From IMG/VR virus record IMGVR_UViG_3300018494_000126: a stretch of DNA of 64,000 nt. One strand, given 5' to 3'. The translations under genes and the position numbers were made by a program. The notes beneath the pieces were generated by a model that saw only the letters and a program-made list of their open reading frames with translations, did no database searches and was not told the DNA's origin. The stretch is from a virus. This document shows positions 4,263 through 64,000 of this stretch, one piece after another; the stretch's first letter is position 1, and every line of letters starts with the position of its first letter.

Positions 4263-5300
4263 ATGAATGGTAGATTTGAAACTCAATTATGTTATCAGGA
4301 TAAAATTGATAAAAAATTAGAAAGTCTGCCTCAATATGTAAAAGATTATTGTTATTCTTTTTCTTATGGTGCTCAAATTAAAACTGCTCATAAATATATT
4401 GGAATAATTGAGAACTTTTATAAAAGTATAAAAGAAGATTCAACCACAGTGACACCAGAAGAAGCAGCACAGAATGTAGCACGTTATATGGTTGCTAAAA
4501 AGACCAAAACGGTTATACAAAATGGTGTTGCTAAAGTTACTCCCACATCAATTTTTTATCAACAGTTAATTTATACTGTATTAAAAAACTTTATGGGGTA
4601 TTTATACTCAAATAAGTTAATCGAAATTAATCCAATAACAGAAATTAAACGTCCAAAAGGAGAAGATAAGGTACAACGGCCTGAGATTACTCCTGATGAA
4701 TTGCAACAAATGTTGGGCGCTGTATTATTTGGGGCTGGTTCTACACGAGCTCGTAAAATTCAGAATAAATGGAAATCAAGAGATTTCTTGATTTTATTAT
4801 TATTTATTTTGACTGGTATGCGTCGTAGTGCGTTAAGCGAAATTAATGTAGAAGATATTAATTTGGAAACGGGAGAATTAACAGTTATTGATAAGGGGCG
4901 AAAAACCCATGTTTATCAAATCAGTTCCATTATGCAATATGTAAATGATTGGTTATATGATAGAGAAGAACTGTTGCGTGAATGGGGTGTTCAGCTGGAT
5001 GCGTTATTTATTTCTCGACAAAAAGCGCGATTATCAACAGATAGTATAGCAGAAATTGTTCATAAATACTCAGAAGCGGTTTTAGGCGAAGGGATTTCAC
5101 CGCATAAAATACGTTATGCATTTGTAACTAATATTATAAAGGAAACTGGAGATATAGAATTTGCACGACGAGCGGTAGGTCATTCTAATATTAGTACTAC
5201 CCAGCGTTATGTAGTTATGAATGATTCTGATGTAAAACAGCGTTCGGCCGATATCATTGTTAAACAAATTCATGATGGTTTTGTCATGGCTAAAGATTAA
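4263..5300 (+). CDS. tyrosine recombinase / integrase (XerC/D-like)
   Basis: Box I TGMRRSAL; box II HKIRYAFVT...GHSNISTTQRYV (R-H-R-Y catalytic signature). Confidence 0.85.
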   Translation: MNGRFETQLCYQDKIDKKLESLPQYVKDYCYSFSYGAQIKTAHKYIGIIENFYKSIKEDSTTVTPEEAAQNVARYMVAKKTKTVIQNGVAKVTPTSIFYQQLIYTVLKNFMGYLYSNKLIEINPITEIKRPKGEDKVQRPEITPDELQQMLGAVLFGAGSTRARKIQNKWKSRDFLILLLFILTGMRRSALSEINVEDINLETGELTVIDKGRKTHVYQISSIMQYVNDWLYDREELLREWGVQLDALFISRQKARLSTDSIAEIVHKYSEAVLGEGISPHKIRYAFVTNIIKETGDIEFARRAVGHSNISTTQRYVVMNDSDVKQRSADIIVKQIHDGFVMAKD

Positions 5301-21609: not shown

Positions 21610-21933
21610 GTATTAATTTTCATGCAACGTGGGTAAACAAACCTGCTCACGTAAAATTCGGTGAACGTATGCAAAAACGGTGTGTAACATTTTTGTTATG
21701 CTAACGGTGAAAGCCTAAGTCGTAAGATAAGGTAATACCGTGCCAAGCCTTATACATAAGGAAGGTGTAACGACTATTACGTACATCTGAGATTAGCACA
21801 GATGGAAGTGCCGAATAGAGTATTTTACTCTAAAGATATAGTCTAATCCCTATAGAAATACCGAGAAATCGGGGGTATAAATGATGGATTTAATCGTTCT
21901 CATTGTCTTGCTTACAGTTTATTGGGATTGCAG
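21610..21933 (+). mobile_element. group I intron in dnaE (no ORF)
   Basis: Untranslatable ~320-nt gap inside a conserved DnaE motif. Contains the group I S-element-like AAGATATAGTC preceded by GACTA, and a 5' motif (GTAAAATTCGGTGAAC) shared with the nrdD intron. Boundaries approximate: U before 5' site, G at 21933. Confidence 0.6.
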
Positions 21934-26840: not shown

Positions 26841-28043
26841 ATGAGGATTATTAAAAAAGATGGCACATTAGAAGATTATAATGAACAAAAAATAATTAAT
26901 GCTTGTAATAAAGCTGCTAGACGAGCAATGGTAGAATTAAATGCTAATGATTATCAGTTGATTTGTAACGCCGTCTGGGAAAAACTCGTTGAAAATGATT
27001 TAGAAGAAACTGAAATTTATGAAATGCATAATATCGTTGAAGCCGTATTGGAAGAATTATATCCAATAGTGGGGAAAATGTATAAAGAATATAGAAATTA
27101 TAAAAAAGACTTTGTTCATATGATGGATAAAGTATACGCCAGAAGTCAAGCAATTAGATACATTGGTGATAAGAGTAATGCTAATACTGATTCTGCTTTG
27201 GTGGCAACAAAGAGAAGTTTAATTTATAACGAACTGAGCAGTGAATTATATAAGAAGTTTTTCTTAACACTTGATGAAAAGCAAGCAATGAAAGATGGGT
27301 ACATCTATATCCATGATAGGAGTGCTAGACTTGATTCCTTTAATTGCTGTTTGATGCGTGTAGGCCATATTATGCATAACGGTTTTGAAATGGGGAACGT
27401 TTGGTATAACGAGCCTAATTCACTTGATACTGCATTCGATGTTATGGGAGATATTATCCTTTCAACAGCTGCACAGCAATACGGAGGGTTTACTGTACCA
27501 GAAGTTGATAAGATTTTAGCACCTTATGCAGAGAAGTCTTATAGAAAATATATTGAAGAATATAGAAAAGTTGAAAATGATGTATTAAGTCAAGTGTCTT
27601 GGAATGGTCGAGTTAAAGACGAAGGAGCTATAAAATATGCTCTTGATAAAGTCAGAAGAGACTTTGAACAAGGTTGGCAAGGCATTGAATATAAGTTAAA
27701 TACAGTTGGTTCTTCTAGGGGCGATTACCCATTCGTTACCATGACTATAGGATTAGCAACAGATATATTTGGCAAAATGGCCGCTATTACTTTACTCCAA
27801 GTACATAGTGAGGGCCAAGGTAAGAAAGGATTTAAGCGTCCTGTTTTATTCCCTAAGATTGTATTCTTATATGATAAAGAACTTCACGGAGATGGTTCTG
27901 AACAGTATCCAAATGCAGATGTATTTAATGCAGGAATTGATTGTAGTAGTAAAACCATGTATCCTGATTGGTTATCTTTAACTGGTAATGGATATGTACC
28001 TGAAATGTATAAGAAATATAAAAGAGTGATTAGTCCAATGGGT
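26841..28043 (+). CDS. nrdD: anaerobic ribonucleoside-triphosphate reductase NrdD, exon 1
   Basis: N-terminal ATP-cone (MRIIKKDGTLEDYNEQKIINA), class III RNR core, ends ...YKRVISPMG. Confidence 0.8.
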
Positions 28044-28943
28044 TAATATGATAGCTCATGTAAAACTCGGTGAACTTATATATATAAGGTGTCAATTCAA
28101 CGAATAGTAACCATAGGAAATGATGGCTAATGAATTGGCTAACAGGGGAAGTCATTATTATGATAATCCTGTGCTAATATTCAACGTATTCACTTTTAAA
28201 GAAGGTGAATTTTATATAGAAACAATAATTATAAATAAAGAAATTCAAGGTTTTGAGAGATATCGAATCAACATTAACGGTGTGATTTATGATACTAAAC
28301 GAAACAAAGAAATTGGTCAGTGGATAGATACCGTTGGGTATTACCAATGTGTTTTAAGAGATTCAAATGGTAAGAAATGTTATAAACGTGTACATAGGTT
28401 GGTCGCCAATACGTTTATTCCTAATCCAAATAATCTACCACAAGTCAATCATAAAGATGGAAATAAGTTAAATAATAATATAGATAACTTAGAGTGGTGT
28501 ACAAATAGTGATAACACCCAACATGGTTATGATAACAAATTATATAAATATAAGTCAAGATGTCATGCGATAAACGTCTATTATAAGAAAAATGGTAAAT
28601 ATTTTAAAACTTATAAATCTATAAGAAGTATGTGTGAAGATTTACATATTAATAGAAAGACAGTAACCATGATATTAAAAGATGAAAAATTAACTAATAA
28701 TTATGATTATTTATTTGAATACGTTGAAGAAAGTCAAGAGACTATCGAAAGCATAGCATAAGAGAAAAACTTATGCGAAGAAGCGAGTAGAGTACATATA
28801 AGGTGAAAGTCCTTATGTGGAAGTGCCGAGCATCTATTATTTGGTAATAGAATAATAGATGAAGATATAGTCCAAACTGCGAAAGCAGTTAGTGTCGTGC
28901 ATTCCTTTCTCCATGGTATGAAAGAGGTGGAATGCATCCTGCG
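28044..28943 (+). mobile_element. group I intron in nrdD carrying an HNH homing endonuclease ORF
   Basis: 5' end CATGTAAAACTCGGTGAACTTAT is homologous to the dnaE intron 5' end; 3' part has GGAAGTGCCGAG and the S-like AAGATATAGTCC; interrupts an otherwise continuous NrdD; boundaries approximate. Confidence 0.6.
28120..28761 (+). CDS. HNH homing endonuclease (intron-encoded)
   Basis: VHRLVANTF...NHKDGNKLNNNIDNLEWCT..NTQHG HNH_3-type motif plus NUMOD-like regions; lies inside the nrdD intron. Confidence 0.8.
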   Translation: MMANELANRGSHYYDNPVLIFNVFTFKEGEFYIETIIINKEIQGFERYRININGVIYDTKRNKEIGQWIDTVGYYQCVLRDSNGKKCYKRVHRLVANTFIPNPNNLPQVNHKDGNKLNNNIDNLEWCTNSDNTQHGYDNKLYKYKSRCHAINVYYKKNGKYFKTYKSIRSMCEDLHINRKTVTMILKDEKLTNNYDYLFEYVEESQETIESIA

Positions 28944-40646: not shown

Positions 40647-41357
40647 ATGAGCATAAGTAGATATTTACCAACACTTCAATTAAATGAAAAAATGTATAAA
40701 ATATTGAATATTATTCTTCTTCAGGTGTTCTGGATACAATTAATTTTACGTTTTGTATTTACTCCTGTAGATATTTTACCGCATATTTCTACTTATCCGA
40801 TAGTGCAAACACGAACAGTAGAACAGTTACCGACTTTACAGGAGCTTAAACAAGTTCAAGCACAGAAAAAAATTCAAGAGTTTAATGAGTTAATTACATC
40901 ACTAGAATCAATTAAAGAATATGATAGACAAGCATATATTTTAGCATATAAAAAAGCATATCGAGACTATGATGAGTATGTTATGCCGTTTCATTCTGTC
41001 TATGATGAATATACAGATGAAGAGATTGAGTTATTCCAAAGAGCGGTAGAGACAGAAACACATGACGGCGATTTTGATTCTAAAGTTAATGTGGCCAATG
41101 TTATATTAAATAGAGTTGCTAATACAGAATTTTCGGATATTAATGGCTCTTTGAGTAAAGTTATCACTCGTAAGAATCAGTTTGCTTATCATCGTACTGA
41201 AATCGATTATTCTACAGTGTTAGCAATTGAATATGCTTTTTTATTTGAAGATACTACTGATGGTGCTTTATGGTTTGATACTGGTTTAAATAGTTGGGCT
41301 AAACGTAATAGAACATTTGTGTTTAAAGATGATATAGGACATGTGTTTTATAAATAG
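40647..41357 (+). CDS. SleB/CwlJ-like cell wall hydrolase domain protein
   Basis: C-terminal VANVILNRV...KNQF motif of the Hydrolase_2 (SleB) family; N-terminal TM segment. Confidence 0.65.
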   Translation: MSISRYLPTLQLNEKMYKILNIILLQVFWIQLILRFVFTPVDILPHISTYPIVQTRTVEQLPTLQELKQVQAQKKIQEFNELITSLESIKEYDRQAYILAYKKAYRDYDEYVMPFHSVYDEYTDEEIELFQRAVETETHDGDFDSKVNVANVILNRVANTEFSDINGSLSKVITRKNQFAYHRTEIDYSTVLAIEYAFLFEDTTDGALWFDTGLNSWAKRNRTFVFKDDIGHVFYK

Positions 41358-41562
41358 GAGTGTGATAGATATACAACGCATATTAAAGAGTAAGGAAGTA
41401 AAAGAATATTTAGGTATTGCTTCTGATAAAACACTATATAAATTATTAAATACGAAGGGGTTTCCTCAATTTAAGATTGGAAGAGATTATTATATCCCAG
41501 AAGATGATTTAATAGATTGGATAAGTAAAAATGCTAAAATGAATACGAAGATAATAATTTAG
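41341..41562 (+). CDS. xis: excisionase/AlpA-like HTH DNA-binding protein
   Basis: KEVKEYLGIASDKTLYKLLNTKGFPQFKIGRDYYIPEDDLIDWI matches the excisionase-family HTH_17 pattern. Confidence 0.6.
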   Translation: MCFINRSVIDIQRILKSKEVKEYLGIASDKTLYKLLNTKGFPQFKIGRDYYIPEDDLIDWISKNAKMNTKIII

Positions 41563-41993: not shown

Positions 41994-43391
41994 ATGGCTA
42001 AAAGAAAAAACGGAGAAGGTAATTGGGGTACTCGTACAATTAATGGTGTTCAATATAAATACTATAGAAAGTATTATGATTGGAAAGATGATTATCACAC
42101 ATTCTATGGTAAAACAGAAAAAGAAATTAATCAAAAGAGAGAACAGTTTGAATTAGTAAATAAGGATAAGCATAAATTCGATGCTAAGAATGTTAAGCAG
42201 GAAACATTCTATCATTATTGCAAGCATTGGATAGAAGATATAAAACCTAATGATGGTTCAGATACAAAACAAGTAACTATTGATTCGTATGCAGATATGT
42301 TAGACAATCGAATTAAAGATACATTTCTGGGTAATACTCAAATTGCTTCATTAAGCGAAGATATTTTCCAAGATTATATAGATGATTATTGTGTAAAGCA
42401 AAAAGAATATTCGAGAGGTACAATTAAAAGAACGCAATCGTTATTAAATCAGATTTGCGAGTATATGTATGAAACAGATAAGTATGCTCCATGTAATTAT
42501 ATGGAAGACATCATCATTCCTTCTGAAAAGAACGTAAAAACCAAAAGGCGTAAAGTACCATTCTTAGAAGAATCAGATATGTTAAAACTCTATGATGAGT
42601 TTCAAAAAATGCATAGTACTGGTAGAAACAAATATGGACTAAATGCTCATATGGTTATATTTATCATGTATACTGGTTTGCGTATATCTGAGGCTCTTGC
42701 ACTTAAATGGAAGGATGTTAATTTAGACCTAAACATCATTACAATAACGCACGTTATTGCAAAAATAAGAAATCCAAAGGGTGATAAACCCAAACATATT
42801 TATGTAGATACAGATGGTACTAAAACATATTCTAGCGAGCGCAGCATTCCATTATCAGACATTGCTTTATTAATTCTTAAAGGTTTATGGAAAAACCAAG
42901 ACCCTAATTATTATGTTTTCACTGAGGATGGGGTTACAATTAGCAATCATAGTAATGTTACACGCACTTTAAACCTTATGCAAAAGAATGCAAATTGCAA
43001 GATAAAGAAAAGTGGATTACATTCTTTAAGACACACATTTGGTTCTTATTTGATACTTAAAGGCGTTGATATTAAGACTGTCAGTGAGTTATTAGGACAC
43101 TCTAGTATAGAAATTACGTTAAATATATATGTTCATATTATTAATGCTCAAAAAGCATCTGCTATCAAATTATTTAACAATGTTCAAAAGCAAGTAAATA
43201 CTACTCCTATAGGAGTAGTAGAATCATTGAGCAAAATGGGTATTTCACTAATAGAGATAGAAGAAGGAATGCTTGGCTATATTGAAAATGGAAAACTTGT
43301 TAAGCTTCCTATAAATAAAACTCTTGCAATTAATGATATTATAATTAACAATATAGACATATATAATGAATATTACAAAAGCGAGGAATAG
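41994..43391 (+). CDS. int: tyrosine integrase (large phage-type, N-terminal arm-binding domain)
   Basis: Box I YTGLRISEALAL; box II LHSLRHTFGSYL...LLGHSSIEITLNIYVH. Confidence 0.85.
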   Translation: MAKRKNGEGNWGTRTINGVQYKYYRKYYDWKDDYHTFYGKTEKEINQKREQFELVNKDKHKFDAKNVKQETFYHYCKHWIEDIKPNDGSDTKQVTIDSYADMLDNRIKDTFLGNTQIASLSEDIFQDYIDDYCVKQKEYSRGTIKRTQSLLNQICEYMYETDKYAPCNYMEDIIIPSEKNVKTKRRKVPFLEESDMLKLYDEFQKMHSTGRNKYGLNAHMVIFIMYTGLRISEALALKWKDVNLDLNIITITHVIAKIRNPKGDKPKHIYVDTDGTKTYSSERSIPLSDIALLILKGLWKNQDPNYYVFTEDGVTISNHSNVTRTLNLMQKNANCKIKKSGLHSLRHTFGSYLILKGVDIKTVSELLGHSSIEITLNIYVHIINAQKASAIKLFNNVQKQVNTTPIGVVESLSKMGISLIEIEEGMLGYIENGKLVKLPINKTLAINDIIINNIDIYNEYYKSEE

Positions 43392-44310: not shown

Positions 44311-44446
44311 ACTAAGCAGAAGTTTAACGGCACTTTCAGAGTGGAAAACGATTGATATTAACTACAAATTTACAACAGTTAGTACAAATTGGGTTAGCAT
44401 AGGAACTTACCCTGAATTAATTAATTGTAAAGAAGCATATGTAAAT

Positions 44447-44650
44447 ATGAGTAATTATCATCATTTATTATTTAATAATGGAACTTCTGCTAGCGCTTCA
44501 ATTTTTACTATGAGTACACAAAATGACTCGAGATATTTTGCTGAATCACAAGCAAAAATACACTTCGATACTGGTCTGGTAGAAGCAAGACAAACAACTA
44601 AAGGTGATGATACTGGTTATAGAACATTTATTGCAATTTATTACCGATAA
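44447..44650 (+). CDS. hypothetical protein
   Basis: 67-aa ORF. Confidence 0.3.
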   Translation: MSNYHHLLFNNGTSASASIFTMSTQNDSRYFAESQAKIHFDTGLVEARQTTKGDDTGYRTFIAIYYR

Positions 44651-44678: not shown

Positions 44679-44942
44679 TCAGTCTGTTGTTTTTGTATAT
44701 CTTAAAACAACAATAAATTCACCAGACATTTTAGATTTCATCATAAGTTTGTATCTTGCAAATGAAATATACGGAACACAAAGATTCTCCTCATCAAAAT
44801 AACTTGGAAGTGGATTTGCTACCGTACCACTTGCTGCCGTTTTTATAATTGTTCCCGCAATTGATATTACATTTTCAATATTTAACGCCGATACATCATT
44901 GTGTTCTTCATTTGACCCACTTCCTGTGGAAGTACCAGTCAA
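44679..44942 (-). CDS. hypothetical protein
   Basis: 87-aa ORF on minus strand. Confidence 0.35.
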   Translation of the reverse strand: MTGTSTGSGSNEEHNDVSALNIENVISIAGTIIKTAASGTVANPLPSYFDEENLCVPYISFARYKLMMKSKMSGEFIVVLRYTKTTD

Positions 44943-45085
44943 AACTATTTCATATAATGGTTTTCCTAAGAATGTACCGATTTTTTGTTCTGTTGAATTT
45001 AAAGAAGTAATGTTTTGTAAACTTCTGCATATTCGACTCGATTTATATGCATACTAAATGCAAATCGTGCAAAGGAGATAATGAA

Positions 45086-45754
45086 ATGAACGCTTCTTAT
45101 ATAACCACTATACGGTTTCAAACTTTACAAATCCCAGTAAAAATGATGAAAGTTAACTGTGATAATAGTATTGAATTAAATCAATTATGTAAAGATTCTA
45201 AGGAAAGAGTGAGATACCATAAATATTGTCCTTCATGTAAGAAAGAAATTACAAACGAAGATATTGTAAAAGGTTATCAATATGCGAAAGATAAATATGT
45301 TGTATTGGAACAAACTGAAATTGATTCAATTACTACCGAACAGGATAAACAATTAACTGTAAGTTATTTTTGCAAATCTAAAGAAATAGGAGATTTATTA
45401 ATTTATAAATCTTATTATTTAGTACCTGATATGCAATCTGAAGAAAGATATGATTTATTTAGAAAGGCATTAATTGCGAATAAAGTGATAGCCATAGCTG
45501 AAATGGTTTTAGGTAATCAACAGAGATTAATTGCTTTATTTCCAAATAAAAGATGTATTGTAGCAACAATTCTATTTTACGAAAATGAAATCAACGAACT
45601 CCCATTGATTGCGTCACACAAACATCATAGACATGAGTTAGCAACTTTACAAACCCTGATTTCCACTTATACACATGAATTTGATTGGTCAACTCATTAT
45701 GATAAATATCAAACCAAATTGCGTAATTTAATTCAAAAAAAGATAAAACAATAA
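45086..45754 (+). CDS. ku: Ku-like DNA end-binding protein (bacterial NHEJ Ku / Mu Gam family)
   Basis: IPVKMMKV...RVRYHKYCPSCKKEITNEDIVKGYQYAKDKYVVLEQTE and KSYYLVPD...IAIAEMVLGNQQRLIALF align along the length of B. subtilis YkoV (IPIKLY...IKYEKVCTNCEK..DEIVKGYEYVKGKYVVL, RSYFVGPG...IGIANMTIRSKQQLAIL); start taken at the ATG after AAAGGAG. Confidence 0.8.
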   Translation: MNASYITTIRFQTLQIPVKMMKVNCDNSIELNQLCKDSKERVRYHKYCPSCKKEITNEDIVKGYQYAKDKYVVLEQTEIDSITTEQDKQLTVSYFCKSKEIGDLLIYKSYYLVPDMQSEERYDLFRKALIANKVIAIAEMVLGNQQRLIALFPNKRCIVATILFYENEINELPLIASHKHHRHELATLQTLISTYTHEFDWSTHYDKYQTKLRNLIQKKIKQ

Positions 45755-50246: not shown

Positions 50247-50561
50247 ATGAACAGAAGTTTACAGAATCTAATGATGTTTGATACTGAAAACTTTATTGAA
50301 ATAAAAAATATTGCTTCTGGTGGAATAACTGGAACGTACACTGTGCCAGATAATACTGTTGGAATGTTAAAAGTTTATGCCAGTTTGTCGGCAAATACAT
50401 CTTTTTATGTAAATATTAACGGTTACTCAGTTAAAAAAATACAGACTGGTGAAAATAGTTTCTGGATACATGACTTAATCCCATTAGTTGTTCACAGTGG
50501 AGATGTTATTGACTACAAAGCACCAGCCGCATTTACGCTTCATTTATTACCGAGAAAATAG
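50247..50561 (+). CDS. small beta-rich protein, TYTVP-family paralog (antisense to late operon)
   Basis: GITGTYTVPDNTVGMLKV shared with 53010 and 54067 ORFs; no obvious ribosome-binding site. Confidence 0.45.
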   Translation: MNRSLQNLMMFDTENFIEIKNIASGGITGTYTVPDNTVGMLKVYASLSANTSFYVNINGYSVKKIQTGENSFWIHDLIPLVVHSGDVIDYKAPAAFTLHLLPRK

Positions 50562-50576
50562 ATAACTTCTGAAAAT

Positions 50577-51077
50577 TTACCTTAATCCAATTTTATAAAC
50601 AGTGCTACTAGATTCAAAATTATTTGTTTTTACAACATCACCAGCCTTGCAACGTATTGGTGAGAATGTAAGTGAAATACCTTCTCCAACTAAAGCATTA
50701 ACGACGTAAGTGTTAATGCTTACTTGTTGATTTTTTGTACTCTTATTCATATAAGTCCTTATATAACAATCTTCTGTAAGTGTAACGGTTGTATTTGTTC
50801 CGTCTATAATTTTTTCACGATTAGCAAAGTCTGGTGCTAAACTTCTGTTCAAATCACTAACTACCGTTGCATCAGCAGCATATCCAGTTTCAGTTACGTT
50901 TGTACTGGTAGTAATTCCTTTAACAGAACCTAAATTAGTTTCCAAATTGTTATTTGCATCTTCACCATCACCAAATAGAATATCTTTTGCCTTAGTGATA
51001 AATGAATACCATTTCCAGCCCGTAGCTGTTTTTTGTCTATATTTCTTTCCATCTACGCTTGTTTCATTAATAGCCAT
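50577..51077 (-). CDS. small tail-associated protein, same paralog family
   Basis: N-terminal VDGKKYRQKTATGWKWYSF; C-terminal VNALVGEGIS similar to INAVVGDTIS of the 53353 ORF. Confidence 0.5.
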   Translation of the reverse strand: MAINETSVDGKKYRQKTATGWKWYSFITKAKDILFGDGEDANNNLETNLGSVKGITTSTNVTETGYAADATVVSDLNRSLAPDFANREKIIDGTNTTVTLTEDCYIRTYMNKSTKNQQVSINTYVVNALVGEGISLTFSPIRCKAGDVVKTNNFESSSTVYKIGLR

Positions 51078-51110
51078 AAGATGTTCTCCTTTCTAAATTA
51101 AAAGAAGCCA

Positions 51111-51611
51111 TTAAGTAAATTCCTCAATGGCTTCATAAATATCGTTCTCACAAATTAAAGTGAGTGTTTTGTTATCTACATCAACACTGCAATTACTATC
51201 ATTAATAACAGCAATAGTAGAATCTAATGTAGCTTCTTCTAATTTTAATACATATTTATCAATTGGGTAACCCCCACCTAACCAAAATTCTCCCTCTGCT
51301 ATATTATCAGGAGGAATCAATTCTCTAAAAAAATGTGGATTTGTTTTAGTCTTTTTTGCTACATGGTTTTGTAATGTAGAAACTCTATTTTCAATTGCAT
51401 TTAAAAAGCAAGCAAATAGACCACTAATACCTTCTTGATTATTAATGTAATTAGAAGCGCGTGTATATTGACCAAGTGATATATATTTCTGAAACTGGTT
51501 CATAATATCAATTTGGTCAATTGTGACATCCTGAAAAAAGATATTGTTATCTATTTTATCAGGATAGAATGAATCTGGGGAACATAACATTATTAAATAC
51601 CCCCAATCCAC
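51111..51611 (-). CDS. hypothetical late protein
   Basis: 166-aa ORF in late operon. Confidence 0.5.
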   Translation of the reverse strand: MDWGYLIMLCSPDSFYPDKIDNNIFFQDVTIDQIDIMNQFQKYISLGQYTRASNYINNQEGISGLFACFLNAIENRVSTLQNHVAKKTKTNPHFFRELIPPDNIAEGEFWLGGGYPIDKYVLKLEEATLDSTIAVINDSNCSVDVDNKTLTLICENDIYEAIEEFT

Positions 51612-51922
51612 ACATCATTTTCATTTGCTATCGGCTCATCTGCGCCAGAATGCACACATTGTTGAGCAGCTCTTGCAAAAATTTGAGTATTATGAACTTC
51701 TTCTTCAATAGTTCTAAACCATTCACTACCAACCGCTCGATTAATAAGACGGTCGCTATTTTCTCGTTCAAGTTTAGCGGCCTCTCCAAATTTTCCAGCC
51801 TGACGTAGTGATTCAATTTCATTCACTAAAGCGGCTACTTCATCAGTAACATCCTGAAAATTATGCAAAGTAATTAAACCTTTAGCGGGAAAGTTGGCAT
51901 ATTCATATTGATAACTTGCCAT
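51593..51922 (-). CDS. hypothetical late protein (XkdW-like size and position)
   Basis: 109-aa ORF following the tail protein. Confidence 0.45.
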   Translation of the reverse strand: MASYQYEYANFPAKGLITLHNFQDVTDEVAALVNEIESLRQAGKFGEAAKLERENSDRLINRAVGSEWFRTIEEEVHNTQIFARAAQQCVHSGADEPIANENDVWIGGI

Positions 51923-51952
51923 CTCTAACTCCTTTCTAGTGGATTAATTCGC

Positions 51953-52828
51953 TTACATAACACTTGCGTAATAATCTGCCAATACTTCTGACTGATATTC
52001 TTCAGGAATTAATACACCATATGTAATAGCTTCAACTTCTTCTTTAGAAGCAAGACTTCTAATATAAATTCGTAAGTCGCGGAAATAAGTTACATGGTAC
52101 ATTACCCATGTATAAGCAGCTGTAGAAATCAAAGCCATATCTTCATCACTAAAATAACGGCAGTGAACGCTTTCATCTGCAATATGCCAAGGCGTTCCTT
52201 TTTCAAACATACCTTGTACAGATACAGAACCCATAACGCTTAACTGGTCATTAGTTGTTAATGAGAATCTATGAGTTGTTCCATCTGTTAAAGTAACATC
52301 AACACCATCTGCAATAATTGCTTGCTGTGTGTTATTCATTTCTGCGACTTTACGTTCAATAACAGAAGAGAGTGGTTCGTTGTAAACAAATACTGCTGTA
52401 AATGTCTGAGATGCACCAATCTTACCCTCTGTAGGAATAGCGGGTGTCCATTCAACAAACTCATAATTTTCATTCGCAACAGGAGTTGGGATAATGAGTT
52501 CTGAATAATTTTCTACAACCTGAGAAGTATTTCCTTTTAAATTACCACCATTACCAGCAGAAAACGAAACAGTAATAGGTGGTTCAACATAGAAACTACC
52601 ATCTAAAGATAATTGATAAGAACGTTCATTAAGAACTTTATATAAAGTGGTGGCATTATGATATTTGTCACCACCAACTTTCGCATTTTGATTTACATCT
52701 AAAAAACAGTCAAAACCATTTAAGTTAGGTTCGACTTCTTTATTAAAAGTTAATGTGACGATTGCACCTGAAACACTAGCGATGGCTTCATGTACACAAT
52801 CTTCATTCAAAAATTTAACATAAGTCAT
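51953..52828 (-). CDS. tail protein with Listeria-Bacteroides-type repeat
   Basis: NENYEFVEWTPAIPTEGKIGASQTFTAVF resembles the Flg_new/InlB B-repeat. Confidence 0.55.
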   Translation of the reverse strand: MTYVKFLNEDCVHEAIASVSGAIVTLTFNKEVEPNLNGFDCFLDVNQNAKVGGDKYHNATTLYKVLNERSYQLSLDGSFYVEPPITVSFSAGNGGNLKGNTSQVVENYSELIIPTPVANENYEFVEWTPAIPTEGKIGASQTFTAVFVYNEPLSSVIERKVAEMNNTQQAIIADGVDVTLTDGTTHRFSLTTNDQLSVMGSVSVQGMFEKGTPWHIADESVHCRYFSDEDMALISTAAYTWVMYHVTYFRDLRIYIRSLASKEEVEAITYGVLIPEEYQSEVLADYYASVM

Positions 52829-53009
52829 AATTCTTTTTTTCCTTTCTAAAAGAATAGTGCGGGTATTAAACCCGCGTTTGGTGTTTATAAAAAATGTTGT
52901 GAGTTAACAAAATAGAATAATATACGTCAGAAGTTTAGGCGGTCTAACATTCGGTTATGACAGTACAAGTGAAAAATATGGCTATTACAAAAAGGAGGCT
53001 GACACAGAT

Positions 53010-53330
53010 GTGTTTGTCCCTTTTAAGTCAAGTGAATGTGAAACAGTAATCTCATATGTGCAAGGCGGCGATAATAAGTCTACAGAAAAAACATACACCG
53101 TTCCATCAGACGGTACATTAAATATTATCGGCATGTTAATACCTGCTGCATATACAATTTGTAAAGTTAATGATATTCAACAGAACATACATACAACATC
53201 TAATACATATTGCAGATTACAAGGAACAATATCAGTGAAAAAAGACGATGTTGTATATATAAAATATGGAAATGGAACAACAACAGGCAGTACTTGTTGT
53301 TGTGTTTCTGCATATTTTATAGCTGATTAA
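53010..53330 (+). CDS. small beta-rich protein, TYTVP-family paralog
   Basis: KTYTVPSDGTLNIIGML; AAAGGAGG ribosome-binding site upstream; GTG start. Confidence 0.45.
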   Translation: MFVPFKSSECETVISYVQGGDNKSTEKTYTVPSDGTLNIIGMLIPAAYTICKVNDIQQNIHTTSNTYCRLQGTISVKKDDVVYIKYGNGTTTGSTCCCVSAYFIAD

Positions 53331-53352
53331 ATGTTCTTTGTTAGTAATTGGT

Positions 53353-53841
53353 TTACTTTGACACTGAGTTCATCCATGTGGCTAAATCATTTATAATTGT
53401 GGTTTCTTCGTTTGTAATTAAATAAACCCTTAATGCTTGCTTGGGATAACCTTTTGTACTAGGTGTTTTGGCAGAAATGGTATCACCAACAACTGCATTT
53501 ATCATAAACGACTTTGTTTTATATGCACCTTGTTTAATAAACGCAACAGCATATGTTCCAAGCGCAGTTTCGTTATGAACGATTTGCCCTTCTGAATATG
53601 TACCACCCTCGCCACTATAACTTGACACCTTTCCGATAAGTGCCAAAGTACAGTCTTTTTTTACTGTTAAAACTTTATTTGTGGAATCCATAGAAAGGTA
53701 CTCATCAAATAATTCTCCCTTTATCACTTCTGATGATAATGTGGCAACATGTATAGTATCTGAAGGACTTGTTTCCATTCCACTGAATAATAACAATTCA
53801 TCACTACCACCATTAAATTTTTTCCATTCAGACCAGCCCAT
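53353..53841 (-). CDS. small tail-associated protein, same paralog family
   Basis: GWSEWKKFNGGSDELLLF N-terminus; KVLTVKKDCTLALIG resembles the TYTVPSDGTLNIIG motif. Confidence 0.5.
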   Translation of the reverse strand: MGWSEWKKFNGGSDELLLFSGMETSPSDTIHVATLSSEVIKGELFDEYLSMDSTNKVLTVKKDCTLALIGKVSSYSGEGGTYSEGQIVHNETALGTYAVAFIKQGAYKTKSFMINAVVGDTISAKTPSTKGYPKQALRVYLITNEETTIINDLATWMNSVSK

Positions 53842-53843
53842 AT

Positions 53844-54128
53844 TTACACCCCACTTTCTTCGGTGTAAACAGAGTAATATAATTCACCGTCTGTTACTTG
53901 GAACTTAACTTGTCCATTTGCTAAACTTCTGAAAGAGTTTTTATGGTTTTTCCGTAAAATAACAATTTTATGCAGAAGTTTAGGTGGATTTTCATTTAAA
54001 ACTGTAGACGGTAAAAAGCAGGTATCAACAGATGGTGGAGAAACATGGTCAAATTTTAGCGGTGGGTTGGATTTACTATGGACGAATCCTAACCCGACAA
54101 GTGCATTTAATGCACAAACATTGTCCAT
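53844..54128 (-). CDS. doubtful ORF overlapping the open upstream frame of 54067(+)
   Basis: 94 aa; overlaps a plus-strand open frame that encodes family-like sequence, so one of the two is probably not expressed. Confidence 0.25.
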   Translation of the reverse strand: MDNVCALNALVGLGFVHSKSNPPLKFDHVSPPSVDTCFLPSTVLNENPPKLLHKIVILRKNHKNSFRSLANGQVKFQVTDGELYYSVYTEESGV

Positions 54129-54426
54129 AGATTTAAGTGGTTATGAAAGCGTGGTTATACAGGCAAAAGGCTGGAACGCAACAGAAACATATACACCATT
54201 AAAAACACTTATACCAAAAGACGGTAAACCTTATGCAATATGTGGTAATCAAGCAAATTATACCGAAAAGGGAGAAATCAGCGAGAGTTTTGGAATGTAT
54301 GTACGATTGGTAACAGTTAATGATGATGGAATTACATTTACAACTGCACATACAAGTTTATCTAATACAAATAATCAAGCCTGTATACCACTTGAAATTT
54401 ACGGTTGCGGTATAAGTTTGGAGTAA
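54067..54426 (+). CDS. small beta-rich protein, paralog (start uncertain)
   Basis: TETYTPLKTLIP motif. In-frame upstream ~190 nt is open with no ATG/GTG and encodes VDGKKQVSTDGGETWSNFSGGLDLLW, similar to N-termini of the 50577 and 53353 ORFs. Confidence 0.4.
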   Translation: MDLLWTNPNPTSAFNAQTLSIDLSGYESVVIQAKGWNATETYTPLKTLIPKDGKPYAICGNQANYTEKGEISESFGMYVRLVTVNDDGITFTTAHTSLSNTNNQACIPLEIYGCGISLE

Positions 54427-54526
54427 ACTAACATGATAACTTTAACATTATTATTTATATGGTTTTTCTGTATGAGCATTATTGAGTATGGAGATTGCAG
54501 ATAAACTGCCAACTATTTTCGCACGG

Positions 54527-54808
54527 TTAATTTAATTGGTTAATACCTTTTGCAATATAAACAATACATTTATTAATCGAACTTGTAGAAGACCACCTTT
54601 GATACGATGCGGTTATTGTTAAAATTCCTGTACTTGCATTATAAGTTTTACTATACGTCACAGTTGTATTAGATGAACTATTTGGGGTTTGGTCTGACGT
54701 AGGCTCATATATTAAATTGTCAACAGTCAAATTCATATAATCAGCATAATATGGACTAATATCAAGGTCTATTTGTTTTGCAGATGTTCTTTGTATAGAT
54801 GAAAACAC
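54527..54808 (-). CDS. small beta-rich protein, paralog (GTG start)
   Basis: KTYNASTGILTITASY resembles the TYTVP motif; frame open upstream to a stop with no ATG. Confidence 0.4.
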   Translation of the reverse strand: MFSSIQRTSAKQIDLDISPYYADYMNLTVDNLIYEPTSDQTPNSSSNTTVTYSKTYNASTGILTITASYQRWSSTSSINKCIVYIAKGINQLN

Positions 54809-54969
54809 TATGCTATATATACCACTAAAAGGGGTTACTGTATCAGCACCGCTTGGAATATAACCCCAATTTCCTTCCGAATCTTGTGCAAATGTAAGTC
54901 CGCCTAAACTTCTGTAAAAATATTCATGATTTCTTACACAAACACATTAAACTTAACTTTCGATTTGTA

Positions 54970-55033
54970 TCATATTAAAAACACACAATATATAGTGAAC
55001 ACAATCCCTAATAAACACTATATATTGTGTGTG
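54970..55033 (-). terminator. rho-independent terminator after tail-fiber gene
   Basis: Perfect 17-bp inverted repeat ACACACAATATATAGTG / CACTATATATTGTGTGT followed on the minus strand by TTTTAATATG. Confidence 0.55.
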
Positions 55034-55089: not shown

Positions 55090-56493
55090 TTAAATAAATC
55101 TATAACTTGCTGCAACCGCACTCTTGTTTTTGATAGTTAAATTACCATTACTTGATACACCTAACTCAAAATATATAGCATGGGTTATATTTGTCCTATC
55201 ATCATCCATTCCTGCAAGTTGTGTTACATAAACTGTTGTTGGATTATCATAATTCGCTTTTACAAATAACAAGAATGAGAATGTTGAACTTTTACTACCT
55301 AAATGTCCGTCCAACTGTAATAATTTACCATAAAAATGACTTTCTCCTTGTGCTAAACTCCAATCAGTTTCTTTTGTTGCATTGGCATTAATAACATTGT
55401 CATACTTAATAGTAGTTGCACTATTAATCTGTTGAGCAATTTTGCTACTGCTCCAAGTTGAAGATGTCTTTGTTGAAGTATCATCAATTCTGCCCCAATT
55501 ACTCTCAGGTATTAAAGTCATTTCACTTTCTTCAGCAGGTAAGCTTGTAACCAGTTCCGCAGCGCTATTTCCCTCAACTTTAATGGTTGCCCACTGTCTA
55601 ATTTCAAGATAGTAATAACCATCAGTAGGATAATAATAAAATTTCTGAATCTTATAATTAGGGTCAACTCCATTATACAGAGTATAATCTGTTGCGCTGT
55701 GTGTAGTCCAATCACCATAACTATATCTAACCAATTTCGCAGATTTATATGTACCATCATTAGTCATACCAGTAATTTCAACTTTTCCACCATATTGGTC
55801 TGAAACTATAATAGGTTGGCACGTTGCGGAACTACCTAATTTAAGTTTAAGCCATTTTGTTGAATCTGTTGCATTGTTAAGAAGTTTTACAGCATCTTTC
55901 TTTGTGGCAACCTTATTATCCACATAATCAACCACATCATCACTAACACCACTATCCACGCCCTCATTAGTATGGAAAGCCTTGATGATATATAAAACTC
56001 TCAATGATTTTGGTTGTACTGTATCAGCGTTGCCGTAAATAGGGTTGGATTTGGAAGCGTCAAATGCTACATCAGTAACTGTTGTGGGGTTTCCACCATA
56101 AAGAGCATTAAAAGTTGTACCTTTATAAAAAGCACCTTCTACGTTTTGAGCACCACCTACGTCCATATCTAAGTAACCAGTAATATTAGGCAATCCTGCT
56201 TCAACATATTCACCACTTGTATCAGAACCTTCAAGGAAACGTCCATCACAAAGGTTAGGTACATTGAATGTGCCATCTGAACCACCATAGGTATATCCGA
56301 TAATATCAAATAACTCAGGATAATCTGTTGTTTTATAACTAGCACCATCTGCGAGTAAATAACCTCTTGGAACATTGTCTTTTGTACCTAAATACGGTGT
56401 GATACAACCAATGTGCAAAGTAGAAAAGTTCTTATCGCCTACCGCACCGATTTTAACGCCATTTCGTATAATGAATCCACGTTTATTTTCCAT
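55090..56493 (-). CDS. tail fiber protein
   Basis: Gly/Thr/Asn-rich beta-type composition; shares a ~100-aa module (YGDW...YYYPTDGYYYL...ELVTSLPAEESEMTLIPES) with the 56646 ORF. Confidence 0.65.
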   Translation of the reverse strand: MENKRGFIIRNGVKIGAVGDKNFSTLHIGCITPYLGTKDNVPRGYLLADGASYKTTDYPELFDIIGYTYGGSDGTFNVPNLCDGRFLEGSDTSGEYVEAGLPNITGYLDMDVGGAQNVEGAFYKGTTFNALYGGNPTTVTDVAFDASKSNPIYGNADTVQPKSLRVLYIIKAFHTNEGVDSGVSDDVVDYVDNKVATKKDAVKLLNNATDSTKWLKLKLGSSATCQPIIVSDQYGGKVEITGMTNDGTYKSAKLVRYSYGDWTTHSATDYTLYNGVDPNYKIQKFYYYPTDGYYYLEIRQWATIKVEGNSAAELVTSLPAEESEMTLIPESNWGRIDDTSTKTSSTWSSSKIAQQINSATTIKYDNVINANATKETDWSLAQGESHFYGKLLQLDGHLGSKSSTFSFLLFVKANYDNPTTVYVTQLAGMDDDRTNITHAIYFELGVSSNGNLTIKNKSAVAASYRFI

Positions 56494-56645: not shown

Positions 56646-59258
56646 TTAAAACTGTAATACATACCAACTATATTCGTCACCAGCAGCTGTAACAGTAATT
56701 GTATCTACATTTTGTGATTTATGTTTTGCAGTTACGCTAAATTGACCAATATTAGTTCTTCCTAATTCAATCAATAGTGGTTCAGTATTGAAGTTAGATA
56801 ATAACATATAACAACCTGCTTGTGATGCATACTCACTTGAGTAGATAATCGTAAGTTTACCACCAGTGCTTATGTCTATACTTCGACTACCACGATACTG
56901 TGTCTTTGAGCCGACAATATCGTTAGTAGTAGCATTACTATAAACTGGTGACGAAACAAAAGTAACACCCTCTGGAGCAGTAGAGGTCATATCAGATATT
57001 GTAACTACATTATTAGGGCTTGTATCTTTAGGGACAGAGCCAAGAACAGATATTGAGAATGGTGCAAATCCCGCAACTCTTAAATATAAAGTTTTACCAT
57101 CATCAGACCAAGCCCAACCATTTAAAGTATATCCTCTATGGGTGCTACTACCAAAATAAACTGGTTCTGACTTCGGAGTAGAGAACATATACTTTCCAGC
57201 ATAAGGAACATTAAGTTCTAATCCACCAACTCCATTCCCACCTGATGTAATAGTTACATATTTAAAAGATGTATTACTACCAGGCTGATTAAATTGTTTG
57301 ATGTTAATTTTATCAAACTTGTCTTTAAGCATCTGACTTTCAAAAGAACTATAAACATAATCTTTAACAGGAGTACCTGCTGTTCCATCAATGGTAATTG
57401 CTCTTGTATCTATCTCAATGATTGCTTTTCCGTAGCTTGGTATGTGAACCCAAATATCATTATTTGCATCTGCTATAATATAAGCACTATACTCTGCAAC
57501 TAATTCAGATTCATATACGGTTCTTTCTCTTAAAATATAGGAACTTGTATATCTATATCTATTATCTCTAAATAAAGCTGAAAAATATTGCACTGTAGCG
57601 GTAGAGTCTGCCCTACTTGCAGTAAGTTTAATATTACAACCTATTCCTCCTGTTATGGCAGAACAAATTTTGTACCATTTTTCTGTTGATGCACCAGTAT
57701 TGTCAAATGTCTTAACTTGTCTGTTAGCTGTTTGTGCTGCAAGGTCACTTTTAGTAGTAAACACACTTTCAGGTATCAAAGTCATTGCACTTTCTTCAGC
57801 AGGTAAGCTTGTAACTAACTCAGGAGCAGTTGCCAAACCTGTCATAGTGAAGGAAGCATAATTATAAAACTTCAAATAGTAATATTCATCGGTAGGATAA
57901 TAATATAACTCTCCTATTTTTGTATGTACTACAGATGGAACTTGTGTTGCATCATATGAACTCCAATCGCCATAACTAAGTCTAACAACTTTTACTGTTT
58001 TATAATCTGGATTAGAGACAGACTTACTTGCACCAAGAATTTCTATTTTTCCACCATATATATCAGCAACAGAAATTGCAGTTACACTTGGCTTGAATTT
58101 AACATATTTTACATTACCAGATTGAGTATCAAAACTATAAGTAACAGCATTTTTTATCTTATTTGCTGAAAATGTGCTTGTTGTAGAAGTAAGGTCTGTA
58201 TCATCAATAAGATTTTCTACATCACTCTTTAATTCCTCAATAACTTCATATGTTGAAATTTCAGAATCACCGTGATTTGTGTCAAGGCCACTCAATAGAG
58301 CACCTGATTCATTAGTTGTAATAATGTAATCAACATCTGATTCTACAGTACCATCTGTTTCCATCTGTTTATATTCTTCAAATGTACACTCAACAAATTT
58401 CTTCTCGTATCCCTCTAAAGAAGTATCTACATATTCAGTGAGTGCGTCATTTCCATCTGTAATAGTCTGAGTGACTTCCTCAAACTTAGTGTTTATCTTA
58501 CTGCTTGACCAAGTTTTATCCTCAAAAATTTCTTCATCAGTATCATCAATTTTATTATCTGTGTACTGTTGAAGAGAAGTAGTAAGGTCATTATCTACAT
58601 ATTCTCTTAATTCATCGTTTTTGTCTGTGTAGTCTTGGATTACTTCTTCAAACTTTGCTTTTACAGTCTTGTTTGCAATTGCATAATCAGTATCAGCTAA
58701 TTCAGTGTCGACACGTAATGCATTGATATAAAACCAACCATAGACCTCGACATCTTGTTTCTTATAATAAGTTTCATTAGGGTCAAAAGTAGTACCATCG
58801 CCGAGTAAAACTACTTCTAAATATTCCCCATCACGAAGAATATAATATGTTCCTGTTGATGTTTCTGTACACACAGTTTCAACATAATTAATAGTATTTG
58901 ACAATCTTGATTCGTAGAAATAACCTTTCTTAAATCCAGTCGTCAAATCATCTTCACCAACATACTGTACAACCTTGCCCTTATATCTATCATCGTCAGC
59001 AGAAGTAGTAGGGTCTGAAATCTGAAAGTCAGAACCAAAGATAAGTTCTTTCCAATATCCCATTTCAGAAATTTCATTTGTATCAAGCCATTGGAAGTAT
59101 TTCTGTTCGCTGTCTACCCATCCAATAGCTCCGTTTTGTAAATTTGCGATAGGCTCGGAAGCCATTGTCGCTATATCAGGGAATGACAAAATACCGTCAC
59201 CACCTAAAGTTAAAATCTGATTATTCAGATTAATATATCTAACTTTTTTATCAGCCAT
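56646..59258 (-). CDS. large tail fiber / receptor-binding protein
   Basis: 870 aa; acidic repeat-like middle; contains the same YGDW...YYYPTDEYYYL...ELVTSLPAEESAMTLIPES module. Confidence 0.7.
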   Translation of the reverse strand: MADKKVRYINLNNQILTLGGDGILSFPDIATMASEPIANLQNGAIGWVDSEQKYFQWLDTNEISEMGYWKELIFGSDFQISDPTTSADDDRYKGKVVQYVGEDDLTTGFKKGYFYESRLSNTINYVETVCTETSTGTYYILRDGEYLEVVLLGDGTTFDPNETYYKKQDVEVYGWFYINALRVDTELADTDYAIANKTVKAKFEEVIQDYTDKNDELREYVDNDLTTSLQQYTDNKIDDTDEEIFEDKTWSSSKINTKFEEVTQTITDGNDALTEYVDTSLEGYEKKFVECTFEEYKQMETDGTVESDVDYIITTNESGALLSGLDTNHGDSEISTYEVIEELKSDVENLIDDTDLTSTTSTFSANKIKNAVTYSFDTQSGNVKYVKFKPSVTAISVADIYGGKIEILGASKSVSNPDYKTVKVVRLSYGDWSSYDATQVPSVVHTKIGELYYYPTDEYYYLKFYNYASFTMTGLATAPELVTSLPAEESAMTLIPESVFTTKSDLAAQTANRQVKTFDNTGASTEKWYKICSAITGGIGCNIKLTASRADSTATVQYFSALFRDNRYRYTSSYILRERTVYESELVAEYSAYIIADANNDIWVHIPSYGKAIIEIDTRAITIDGTAGTPVKDYVYSSFESQMLKDKFDKINIKQFNQPGSNTSFKYVTITSGGNGVGGLELNVPYAGKYMFSTPKSEPVYFGSSTHRGYTLNGWAWSDDGKTLYLRVAGFAPFSISVLGSVPKDTSPNNVVTISDMTSTAPEGVTFVSSPVYSNATTNDIVGSKTQYRGSRSIDISTGGKLTIIYSSEYASQAGCYMLLSNFNTEPLLIELGRTNIGQFSVTAKHKSQNVDTITVTAAGDEYSWYVLQF

Positions 59259-63558: not shown

Positions 63559-64000
63559 TAAGCTGCATATATATTATGTGCCATAATTGTTTTACTAATA
63601 GGGTTATCCAGATAATGCTTCTGCGTAGTCGCAAAGCTTTCGTGTCCTAATAATTGCTGGATAACGGCTGGTTCTACACCTTTTTTATTAAGGTCGGTAG
63701 CAAACCAACGTCTAAAACAATGCACAGTAATTTGCGGTAAATTGGCACGTTTACCTACTGTTTTAATTATCTGTTGTACGGATTCTTTTCTAAGCTGATA
63801 ATGAGGAGAGTGAGAAGAGCAGAAGATATAATTACTAGAACCGTGAGAAGGGTCTTCTATATATTCTAATAAATGTTTCTTACAACGTGTACTGAATGGT
63901 ACGATACGGTCTTTGCCGCCTTTCCCATGAATTAATATAGTTCTCTGTTCCCAATCTATTTCATCTATACGAATTTTTGGGACTTCACTTACTCGAAGAC
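63559..64000 (-). CDS. tyrosine recombinase/integrase, C-terminal part (continues beyond window)
   Basis: Reverse-strand translation ends ...HCFRRWFATDLNKKGVEPAVIQQLLGHESFATTQKHYLDNPISKTIMAHNIYAA*; classic HxxR ... LLGH ... Y box II. Confidence 0.8.

Follow-up and report, generated by a model that had tools for sequence, protein, structure and literature searches.

A probable tyrosine-recombinase shufflon with eight alternative 3′ ends for a tail-tip protein in phage DNA of the IMG/VR collection

Described inversion systems and the present locus

In the Min (p15B), Gin (Mu), Cin (P1) and Pin (e14) systems, tail-fibre genes are inverted by serine invertases acting on sites of about 26 bp together with an enhancer. 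The present work concerns a locus in a 64-kb stretch of viral DNA (hereafter the window: the 64,000 nucleotides analyzed of IMG/VR record IMGVR_UViG_3300018494_000126, with about 32% G+C; coordinates are in window numbering), which is probably a tyrosine-recombinase shufflon of a tail-tip protein with eight alternative 3′ ends. It shares with those systems the switching of tail-fibre C-termini by the inversion of convergent cassettes, in Min with six crossover sites, and the two-gene Sv-U cassette of Mu parallels one of the cassettes described below (cassette D with its 162-aa gene). The enzymes differ, those of Gin, Cin, Pin and Min being serine invertases. In the window none was detected when all six-frame open reading frames (ORFs) of at least 60 amino acids (aa) were searched by phmmer with an approximate Gin sequence (no match at E up to 10), and there was no Resolvase match in the Pfam scans run, which covered a subset of the window ORFs.

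Concerning the tyrosine-recombinase systems, the R64/IncI shufflon is similar in that an adhesin changes its C-terminus through multiple inversions at short asymmetric repeats. However, R64 is a plasmid, the adhesin is the PilV of a conjugative pilus, the sfx sites measure 19 bp and rci is adjacent (cf. PMC9881135), while the target here is a gene of a phage tail module and the recombinases best match Xer-type models (the presence of an Rci model in the library was not checked). In the Rin shufflon of Bifidobacterium and Eggerthella lenta prophages, a XerD-like tyrosine invertase acts on 11-bp rix repeats, and the receptor-binding protein targeted is encoded by a single constant gene part and several variable ones (PMC6109161; PMC8778435). 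Its likeness to the present locus, which is one of description and layout rather than of compared sequences, comprises the phage-encoded character, a constant N-terminal part with dissimilar C-terminal cassettes, each headed by an asymmetric repeat of 11 bp in Rin and of 10 bp here, a XerD-like tyrosine recombinase without arm-binding domain and distinct from the integrase (here the candidate TR2), and isomers seen by comparing related genomes. On the other hand, the Rin array is compact and flanked by rin, whereas here four pairs of cassettes are scattered across 10.6 kb and interspersed with lysis and tail genes, the candidate invertase lies 8.6 kb away, one cassette contains two genes and a second switch acts on another tail gene. 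The host clades (Lachnospiraceae here, Actinobacteria there), the cores and the target protein families are also different.

The tail-fibre shufflon of BV01-like Phocaeicola phages, in which three cassettes lie within 1.7 kb next to the recombinase and the configuration frequencies vary between samples (preprint PMC13596623), is alike in belonging to a gut phage, in the 10-bp directional motifs and in the presence of several cassettes that overlap a tail-fibre gene at its 3′ end. It is unlike the present locus in that here there are eight dispersed cassettes plus the second switch on another gene. None of the papers in the library searched joins Lachnospiraceae, shufflon and phage. The kind of system is already known, and what is new is its unusually scattered form, with eight cassettes in four pairs over 10.6 kb.

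The 10-bp core, the constant gene and its cassettes

The sequence CAGAAGTTTA, 10 bp long, is present in eight exact copies in the window, compared to 0.27 expected. All of them are within 44.3-54.9 kb, in the orientation order + - + - + - + -, at positions 44317 (X1), 45027 (X2), 50252 (A), 50847 (B), 52928 (C), 53931 (D), 53973 (E) and 54914 (F). The near-matches to this core amounted to 13, a number reached by none of 100 shuffles. The conservation is confined to the 10 bp, with unrelated flanks, and a repeat finder returned inverted repeats built around CAGAAGTTTAG. Every core is read in frame as (x)-Arg-Ser-Leu (RSL), and seven of the eight head frames that stay open for 88-149 codons, a minimum of 88 codons being reached by only 9.5% of random frames in the window; the eighth frame (core D) is open for about 27-28 codons. 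Core B is the sole copy inside a gene provided with an ATG and a ribosome-binding site, while five cassette frames lack a start or ribosome-binding site at the core. A further near-core with two mismatches, CAGAAGTATTGG, at the 3′ end of the 291-aa gene mentioned below (51979-51990, minus strand), was considered and set aside as probably due to chance.

The initial annotation had described, in the interval 50247-54808, six small paralogous ORFs in alternating orientation, without DNA-level inverted repeats. The six ORFs, 50247(+), 50577(-), 53010(+), 53353(-), 54067(+) and 54527(-), do exist as three convergent plus/minus pairs, surrounded by a minus-strand late arm of lysis, tail-fibre and baseplate genes. 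The peptide motifs quoted for them can be read in their translations, and most of them lack a credible start or ribosome-binding site. The denial of inverted repeats was wrong, as the exact core heads every cassette in alternating orientation. The number of members has to be raised to eight, because X1 (44317, plus) and X2 (45027, minus) are outside the interval, and the members are not alike in role: expression is assigned to 50577-51077(-), which has its core in mid-ORF, 53353-53841(-) is the second of two genes in one cassette, and the other four (50247+, 53010+, 54067+ and 54527-) extend upstream of their listed starts to the core. The annotation had also offered, as one explanation, an inversion or cassette-exchange locus for tail proteins with a recombinase nearby. 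This idea was right in kind, and the feature is real and extends well past that interval. It is supported by the in-frame cores and the single constant 5′ part, and also by the switch of C-terminus at the core, the moved and inverted segments in relatives, and the Xer-like recombinases in related arrays.

The only part of the locus connected to a translation start is the constant 5′ part, const1 (50848..51077, minus strand; codons 1-77, MAINETSV...VVSDLN), which has an ATG and a GGAG-type ribosome-binding site. It continues into core B (50838..50847, minus; mid-ORF, ..DLN/RSL/APDF..), the junction now in use, and from there into cassette B, the C-terminus currently expressed (50577..50837, minus; 89 codons including RSL). 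The product of const1 and cassette B is the 166-aa protein P0001, made of residues 1-77, RSL and then 86 residues. Facing cassette B convergently is silent cassette A (50252..50561, plus; core 50252-50261; 102 codons), whose ORF 50247(+) starts two codons ahead of the core. Silent cassette C (52928..53330, plus; core 52928-52937; 133 codons, RSLGGLTFGYD...) and silent cassette E (53973..54426, plus; core 53973-53982; 150 codons, with an Asp-box-like STDGGETW) contain ORFs 53010(+) and 54067(+), respectively, as the 3′ parts of their frames, and ORF 54527(-) is likewise the 3′ part of silent cassette F (54527..54914, minus; core 54905-54914; 128 codons, RSLGGLTFAQD...GADTVTPF). The divergent cores D and E are separated by a spacer of 41 bp (53932..53972); a comparable short spacer is found between slots L5 and L6 of the related locus L019. 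Away from these, silent cassette X1 (44317..44650, plus; core 44317-44326; 110 codons) is convergent with silent cassette X2 (44679..45027, minus; core 45018-45027; 115 codons).

Cassette D is a two-gene cassette. Its core (53922-53931) and head (53844..53931, minus) comprise 28 codons, RSLANGQVKFQVTDGELYYSVYTEESGV, followed by a stop, and after it comes a 162-aa second gene (53353..53841, minus) with its own ATG and a GGGGTG ribosome-binding site. In the related locus L011, the expressed gene ends in ..QQLNNSL followed by ANGQVKFKVENGDLYYSVYTA and a stop, after which there is a protein beginning MAWSEWKKF.... In L052/L053, a 123-aa tail gene ends in ..DVNDSL followed by ANGQVKFKVENGELFYSVYTEESGV and a stop, and then comes an 82% homologue of the 162-aa protein. 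A reading of cassette D as a frameshift or pseudogene was ruled out because L011 and L052 show, in expressed form, the same short tail and then a separate gene. L052 (6963-7825) and L053 are an unrelated small temperate phage with a serine integrase, in which the 162-aa homologue is placed among ordinary co-directional tail genes and the gene preceding it carries the same ANGQVKF..YSVYTEESGV tail. The presence of this homologue in such an unrelated phage indicates that tail-tip modules are exchanged between very different phages.

The window's own cassettes gave no family match, as a Pfam search of the eight yielded nothing but sub-threshold matches, and sequence searches of the PDB were also negative. 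The AlphaFold2 models of P0001 had mean confidence values (predicted local distance difference test, pLDDT) of 41 with 15 sequences and 62 with 149 sequences; the variable part was below 55, and the models were confident just for residues 50-80. Foldseek searches of the PDB with these low-pLDDT models, which are too poor for a fold to be assigned, gave no match at E ≤0.001.

Related loci and the recombinases

The behavior of the family outside the window agrees with the core being a crossover point. The homologues P0002-P0015 keep residues 1-77, with up to 96% identity, and then have unrelated C-termini of differing lengths, the break being located at (R/Q/E/D)SL. A profile search with the constant domain retrieved 974 representatives among 1.84 billion proteins, nearly all matching from their first residues; among the best 155 of these 974, conservation collapses after L80. 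At the DNA level, the homology between the window and locus L014 (92-96% nucleotide identity) breaks off exactly at core B (50837) and is recovered exactly at core A (50261). The three cores of L014 (constant gene, A slot and X2 slot) are all CCGAAGTTTAG, with a synonymous AGA-to-CGA change. Since the same synonymous change is present at all of its sites, it is the DNA, and not the peptide, that is kept alike, and the cores of one genome change together. More distant relatives, with constant parts 40-57% identical, carry a different core at these codons: CCAGAGTTTA (N-Q-S-L) in L012/L013, L019 and L033-L041, in 5-8 copies of alternating orientation, and AATAATAATTTA (N-N-N-L) in L063 and L072. 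The anatomy of the locus, the family-wide break at the junction and the possession by each genome of a core of its own are thus shown. In another group, L021-L028, two to three tandem copies of a 21-bp unit, ACTACATTAAACCAGAGTGTA, occur at the end of the constant-domain match, at the junction, and repeat the seven residues T-T-L-N-Q-S-V ahead of the core.

These data bear on the other explanation offered by the initial annotation, according to which the ORFs would be independent small accessory genes, paralogues of the XepA/YomS beta-sandwich type, with RSL as a plain peptide motif. Some peptide motifs do recur, and the 162-aa ORF is a true stand-alone gene. However, in five of the cassette frames the core is accompanied by neither a start nor a ribosome-binding site, and the pairwise similarity is mostly at chance level: in Smith-Waterman comparisons against 200 shuffles, just 3 of 36 pairs reached z ≥3.5 (C-F, 4.5; B-D/162, 4.0; D/162-E, 3.5), while the other 33 had z ≤2.8, at or near the shuffle level. 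The claim of a paralogous family is not supported by these numbers, and neither Pfam nor NCBIfam nor PDB sequence searches matched XepA or YomS. Moreover, the conserved element is DNA, 10 nucleotides (nt) that are identical even in the synonymous change of L014 and are flanked by unrelated codons, and in the homologues such sequences are C-termini fused to the constant part. It is therefore very improbable that the cassettes are independent paralogous genes.

Movement of the segments was observed in L033-L036, four contigs from different human-gut assemblies with flanks 97-98.6% identical. A 606-bp inter-core segment, 100% identical in L033 and L036, occupies different slots in them; in L034 it is 99.5% identical, inverted and placed in the expressed slot, and in L035 it is 98.5% identical and in the same slot with the opposite orientation. 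A second segment is inverted between L033 and L035. These rearrangements span whole inter-core segments, and the inversions end within the 10-bp core. As judged from the aligned contigs, real inversion and relocation of segments have taken place in these relatives. One could think of general, homologous recombination at a short conserved linker, with no dedicated site-specific recombinase, given that whole cassettes distinguish close relatives, the breakpoints coinciding with the core, and that a longer linker, GGLxFG...GADTVxPF, is common to some cassettes. Nevertheless, 10 bp are too short for this to be efficient, the inversions of the relatives end within those 10 bp, and a conserved Xer-like recombinase is embedded in the arrays; we regard this possibility as extremely improbable. 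Missing at L036 10839-11699 are slots L2 and L3, the 3′ part of the embedded recombinase and the stretch that separates these two slots from L4; this relative may represent a naturally frozen shufflon.

The window encodes three tyrosine recombinases, none of them inside the array. TR2 (63561..64000, minus) is a Xer-like enzyme without arm-binding domain which is cut by the window end; its full length, 335 aa, was obtained from L050 (5698-6705). Its best NCBIfam matches are models of the XerA/XerC/XerD type, over residues 63-316, and it keeps a putative catalytic R/K/H-R/H/Y set, picked by eye in the translations. TR2 has orthologues in L063 (54% identical, E 1e-129) and L072 (52%, E 1e-124), placed between inverted cores immediately after the constant gene. 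L063 belongs to an isolate, Lachnospiraceae bacterium 10-1, and is a three-site version with the recombinase embedded; its three AATAATAATTTA sites are located at about 543-545 kb of scaffold KE159799.1. A TR2-like gene, a 27% relative, is embedded in L019 (slots L1-L2) and in about 20 metagenomic loci, including L033-L041; the L019 enzyme scores 105 bits to TR2, 50 to TR3 and 16 to TR1. Because of the orthologues within arrays, the TR2-like gene in those loci and its position adjoining the second switch described below, TR2 is the best candidate for the invertase.

The other two enzymes seem less suited to this role. TR1 (41994..43391, plus; 465 aa, integrase type) is 0.9 kb from X1 and is preceded by a Xis-like HTH_17 gene (41341-41562). 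Its L019 homologue is at the array end beside a bacterial-looking gene, as expected for a prophage integrase, which TR1 probably is, although it could be counted as a second invertase candidate. TR3 (4263..5300, plus; 345 aa; PF00589, E 9e-24), in the early/replication arm, is a weaker candidate.

Among GenBank phages, megablast found no match to the locus or to the recombinase region. The constant domain, searched by tblastn in GenBank phages and in the plasmids of PLSDB, gave no match either, nor did IMG/VR scans with the constant protein, TR1 and the 291-aa neighbor. A scan of GTDB genomes with a small alignment was negative, while the same scan with a 149-sequence alignment gave 13 genome loci, with Lachnospiraceae/Clostridium hosts. 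A 139-kb contig of a different sample, L051, matches the window with 99.7% identity between 64000 and 55062. The match breaks 28 nt after the stop codon of the Collar-fibre gene, away from any core. Beyond the break, from L051 15201 onward, there are unrelated genes, which encode ADP-ribosylglycohydrolase, a large serine recombinase of 578 aa, Band_7 and dUTPase, with no shufflon or lysis genes thereafter.

Proposed switching, its activity and a second switch

According to the proposed mechanism, one tail-tip gene would have a fixed 5′ part (50848-51077, minus) ending in ..N-R-S-L, and a store of eight 3′ ends (A, B, C, E, F, X1, X2, and D with the 162-aa gene) arranged in four convergent pairs. 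Strand exchange by a tyrosine recombinase within two oppositely oriented asymmetric cores would invert the DNA between them and join the constant part in frame to another cassette. Recombination of B with A (0.6 kb) would yield const-A, and that of B with E would yield const-E. Recombination of B with C (2.1 kb) would flip the operon of the 291-, 109- and 159-aa genes and the constant gene, which would then read into C, while that of X1 with B (6.5 kb) would flip Ku, the lysis block and the A-B cassette segment to yield const-X1. Cassettes A, C, E and X1 would be one inversion away, and D, F and X2 two. In a formal model, 18,432 isomers are reachable, each cassette reaches the constant part in at most two inversions, and at most three are needed if the operon and the lysis block are to be restored to their native place and orientation.

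The 2.1-kb segment between B (minus) and C (plus) is filled by const1 and the three genes upstream of it (51111..52828, minus; 291, 109 and 159-166 aa). The 291-aa gene has DUF4376/tail-fibre-like matches, and the 109- and 159-aa genes adjoin the constant gene in relatives too. The block between X2 and A measures 5.2 kb. Terminator-like hairpins occur at 51104-51134 (minus) and 52859-52875 (minus), immediately upstream of the constant gene and of the 291-aa gene, respectively; they lie at the two ends of the flippable B-C segment. There is also a perfect 17-bp hairpin without T tract (ACACACAATATATAGTG / CACTATATATTGTGTGT, 54981-55032) between the Collar fibre gene and site F.

Several points weigh against a working shufflon of this kind. 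No alternative isomer was found: more than 24 public contigs of the phage, reached through P0001, the 291-aa neighbor and the E ORF, were examined, and each has the arrangement of the window. JGI 3300029705, the runs behind ERZ27248446 and SRR7031497 are among the source metagenomes. These contigs are consensus assemblies, which hide minority isomers, and the samples may be related. A single fixed orientation, which the initial annotation had named as an outcome contrary to its inversion idea, is therefore what is seen for this phage at the consensus-assembly level, while the segments of relatives do change orientation. An exact look-up in a collection of 15 billion proteins gave none of the seven predicted fusion proteins. 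No recombinase adjoins the array (TR2 is 8.6 kb from site F), and three candidates for the acting enzyme are present. Several of the inversions would flip essential blocks, namely the lysis genes, and also the operon to which the constant part belongs. The promoter scan gave fewer sites than shuffled sequence and was uninformative as to a promoter within the flippable operon. Finally, the receptor-binding role is drawn from the context and from the domains of the relatives' cassettes.

Some of these points would be accounted for by a frozen or relic shufflon, with an arrangement fixed in this phage, the sites being too dispersed or the invertase idle, and with cassettes that change just over evolutionary time, via exchange between phages. 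The single arrangement in the contigs, the lack of fusion proteins on record and the non-adjacent recombinase are in agreement with this, and L036 shows that recombinase-deleted arrays exist. Against it, no base of the 10 bp differs among the eight cores, and seven frames have remained free of stops over 88-149 codons at about 32% G+C; neither feature would persist long if unused. Besides, TR2 retains its apparent catalytic R/K/H-R/H/Y set, and minority isomers could be concealed by consensus assembly of possibly related samples. On balance, a frozen locus is considered unlikely, and the shufflon is presumably active in this phage.

The variable part is most likely the receptor-binding end of the tail-tip protein. 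This is suggested by the position of const1 directly after baseplate and tail-fibre genes, by domains in related cassettes (H_lectin, and F5/8 type C in L011) and by the known systems. Switching would then change the host or receptor specificity of a Lachnospiraceae phage.

Beyond the window end, a second, two-cassette switch adjoins TR2 (L050 4639-5431, about window 64832-65624). In its present state, a 152-aa gene (..QQLSDSL at the junction, with GAYAVQQLSDSL) has an H-type lectin domain at its end, and a silent homologue of cassette B lies opposite to it in convergent orientation; AAGCGACAGTTTAG / CTAAACTGTCGTTT form the inverted repeat. The core of this second constant gene, const2, is CGACAGTTTAG, related to but distinct from the const1 core. 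In relatives, D-type and B-type cassettes are found on either gene. Provided that the bases in which they differ are part of the crossover region, each switch would be insulated from the other. A wider interpretation, which we put forward tentatively as possible rather than probable, is a genome-scale dual-target shufflon in which one Xer-like invertase would serve const1 and const2 in trans, the two being kept apart by their distinct cores; the const1 sites would be dispersed in such a way that switching also flips the lysis block and the const operon, cassettes would move between the genes over evolution, and the family, which at 50% identity comprises about 1000 clusters, would represent a major, so far undescribed diversifier of host range in the Lachnospiraceae phages of the human gut.

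The Lachnospiraceae are dominant commensals of the human gut, and their phages are barely characterized. With a programmable repertoire of at least eight tail tips, it would be understandable that a single large phage can keep up with variable hosts. A shufflon also breaks metagenome assemblies and can mislead the prediction of host range, and it inflates protein-cluster counts, as illustrated by the 974 representatives with one common 80-residue N-terminus. If active, the dispersed layout would show that tyrosine-recombinase shufflons can work over 10 kb and across essential genes. Since Lachnospiraceae bacterium 10-1 is cultured and its recombinase is embedded in a three-site array, the mechanism is directly testable there.

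Other observations concern the remainder of the window. It encodes a Ku-like protein (45047-45754), a PolIII-alpha-type polymerase (19147-21636) and an anaerobic ribonucleotide reductase, NrdD (26841-28046), and the endolysin domains are Amidase_5, GH25 and SH3_3; this set is consistent with a Gram-positive anaerobic host. Two fibre genes, those of the 467-aa Collar fibre and of an 870-aa fibre, have in common a stretch of 51-53 nt with 94% identity (55501-55553 and 57765-57815; ELVTSLPAEES.MTLIPES), surrounded by a similar domain, which may be a point of recombination between them.

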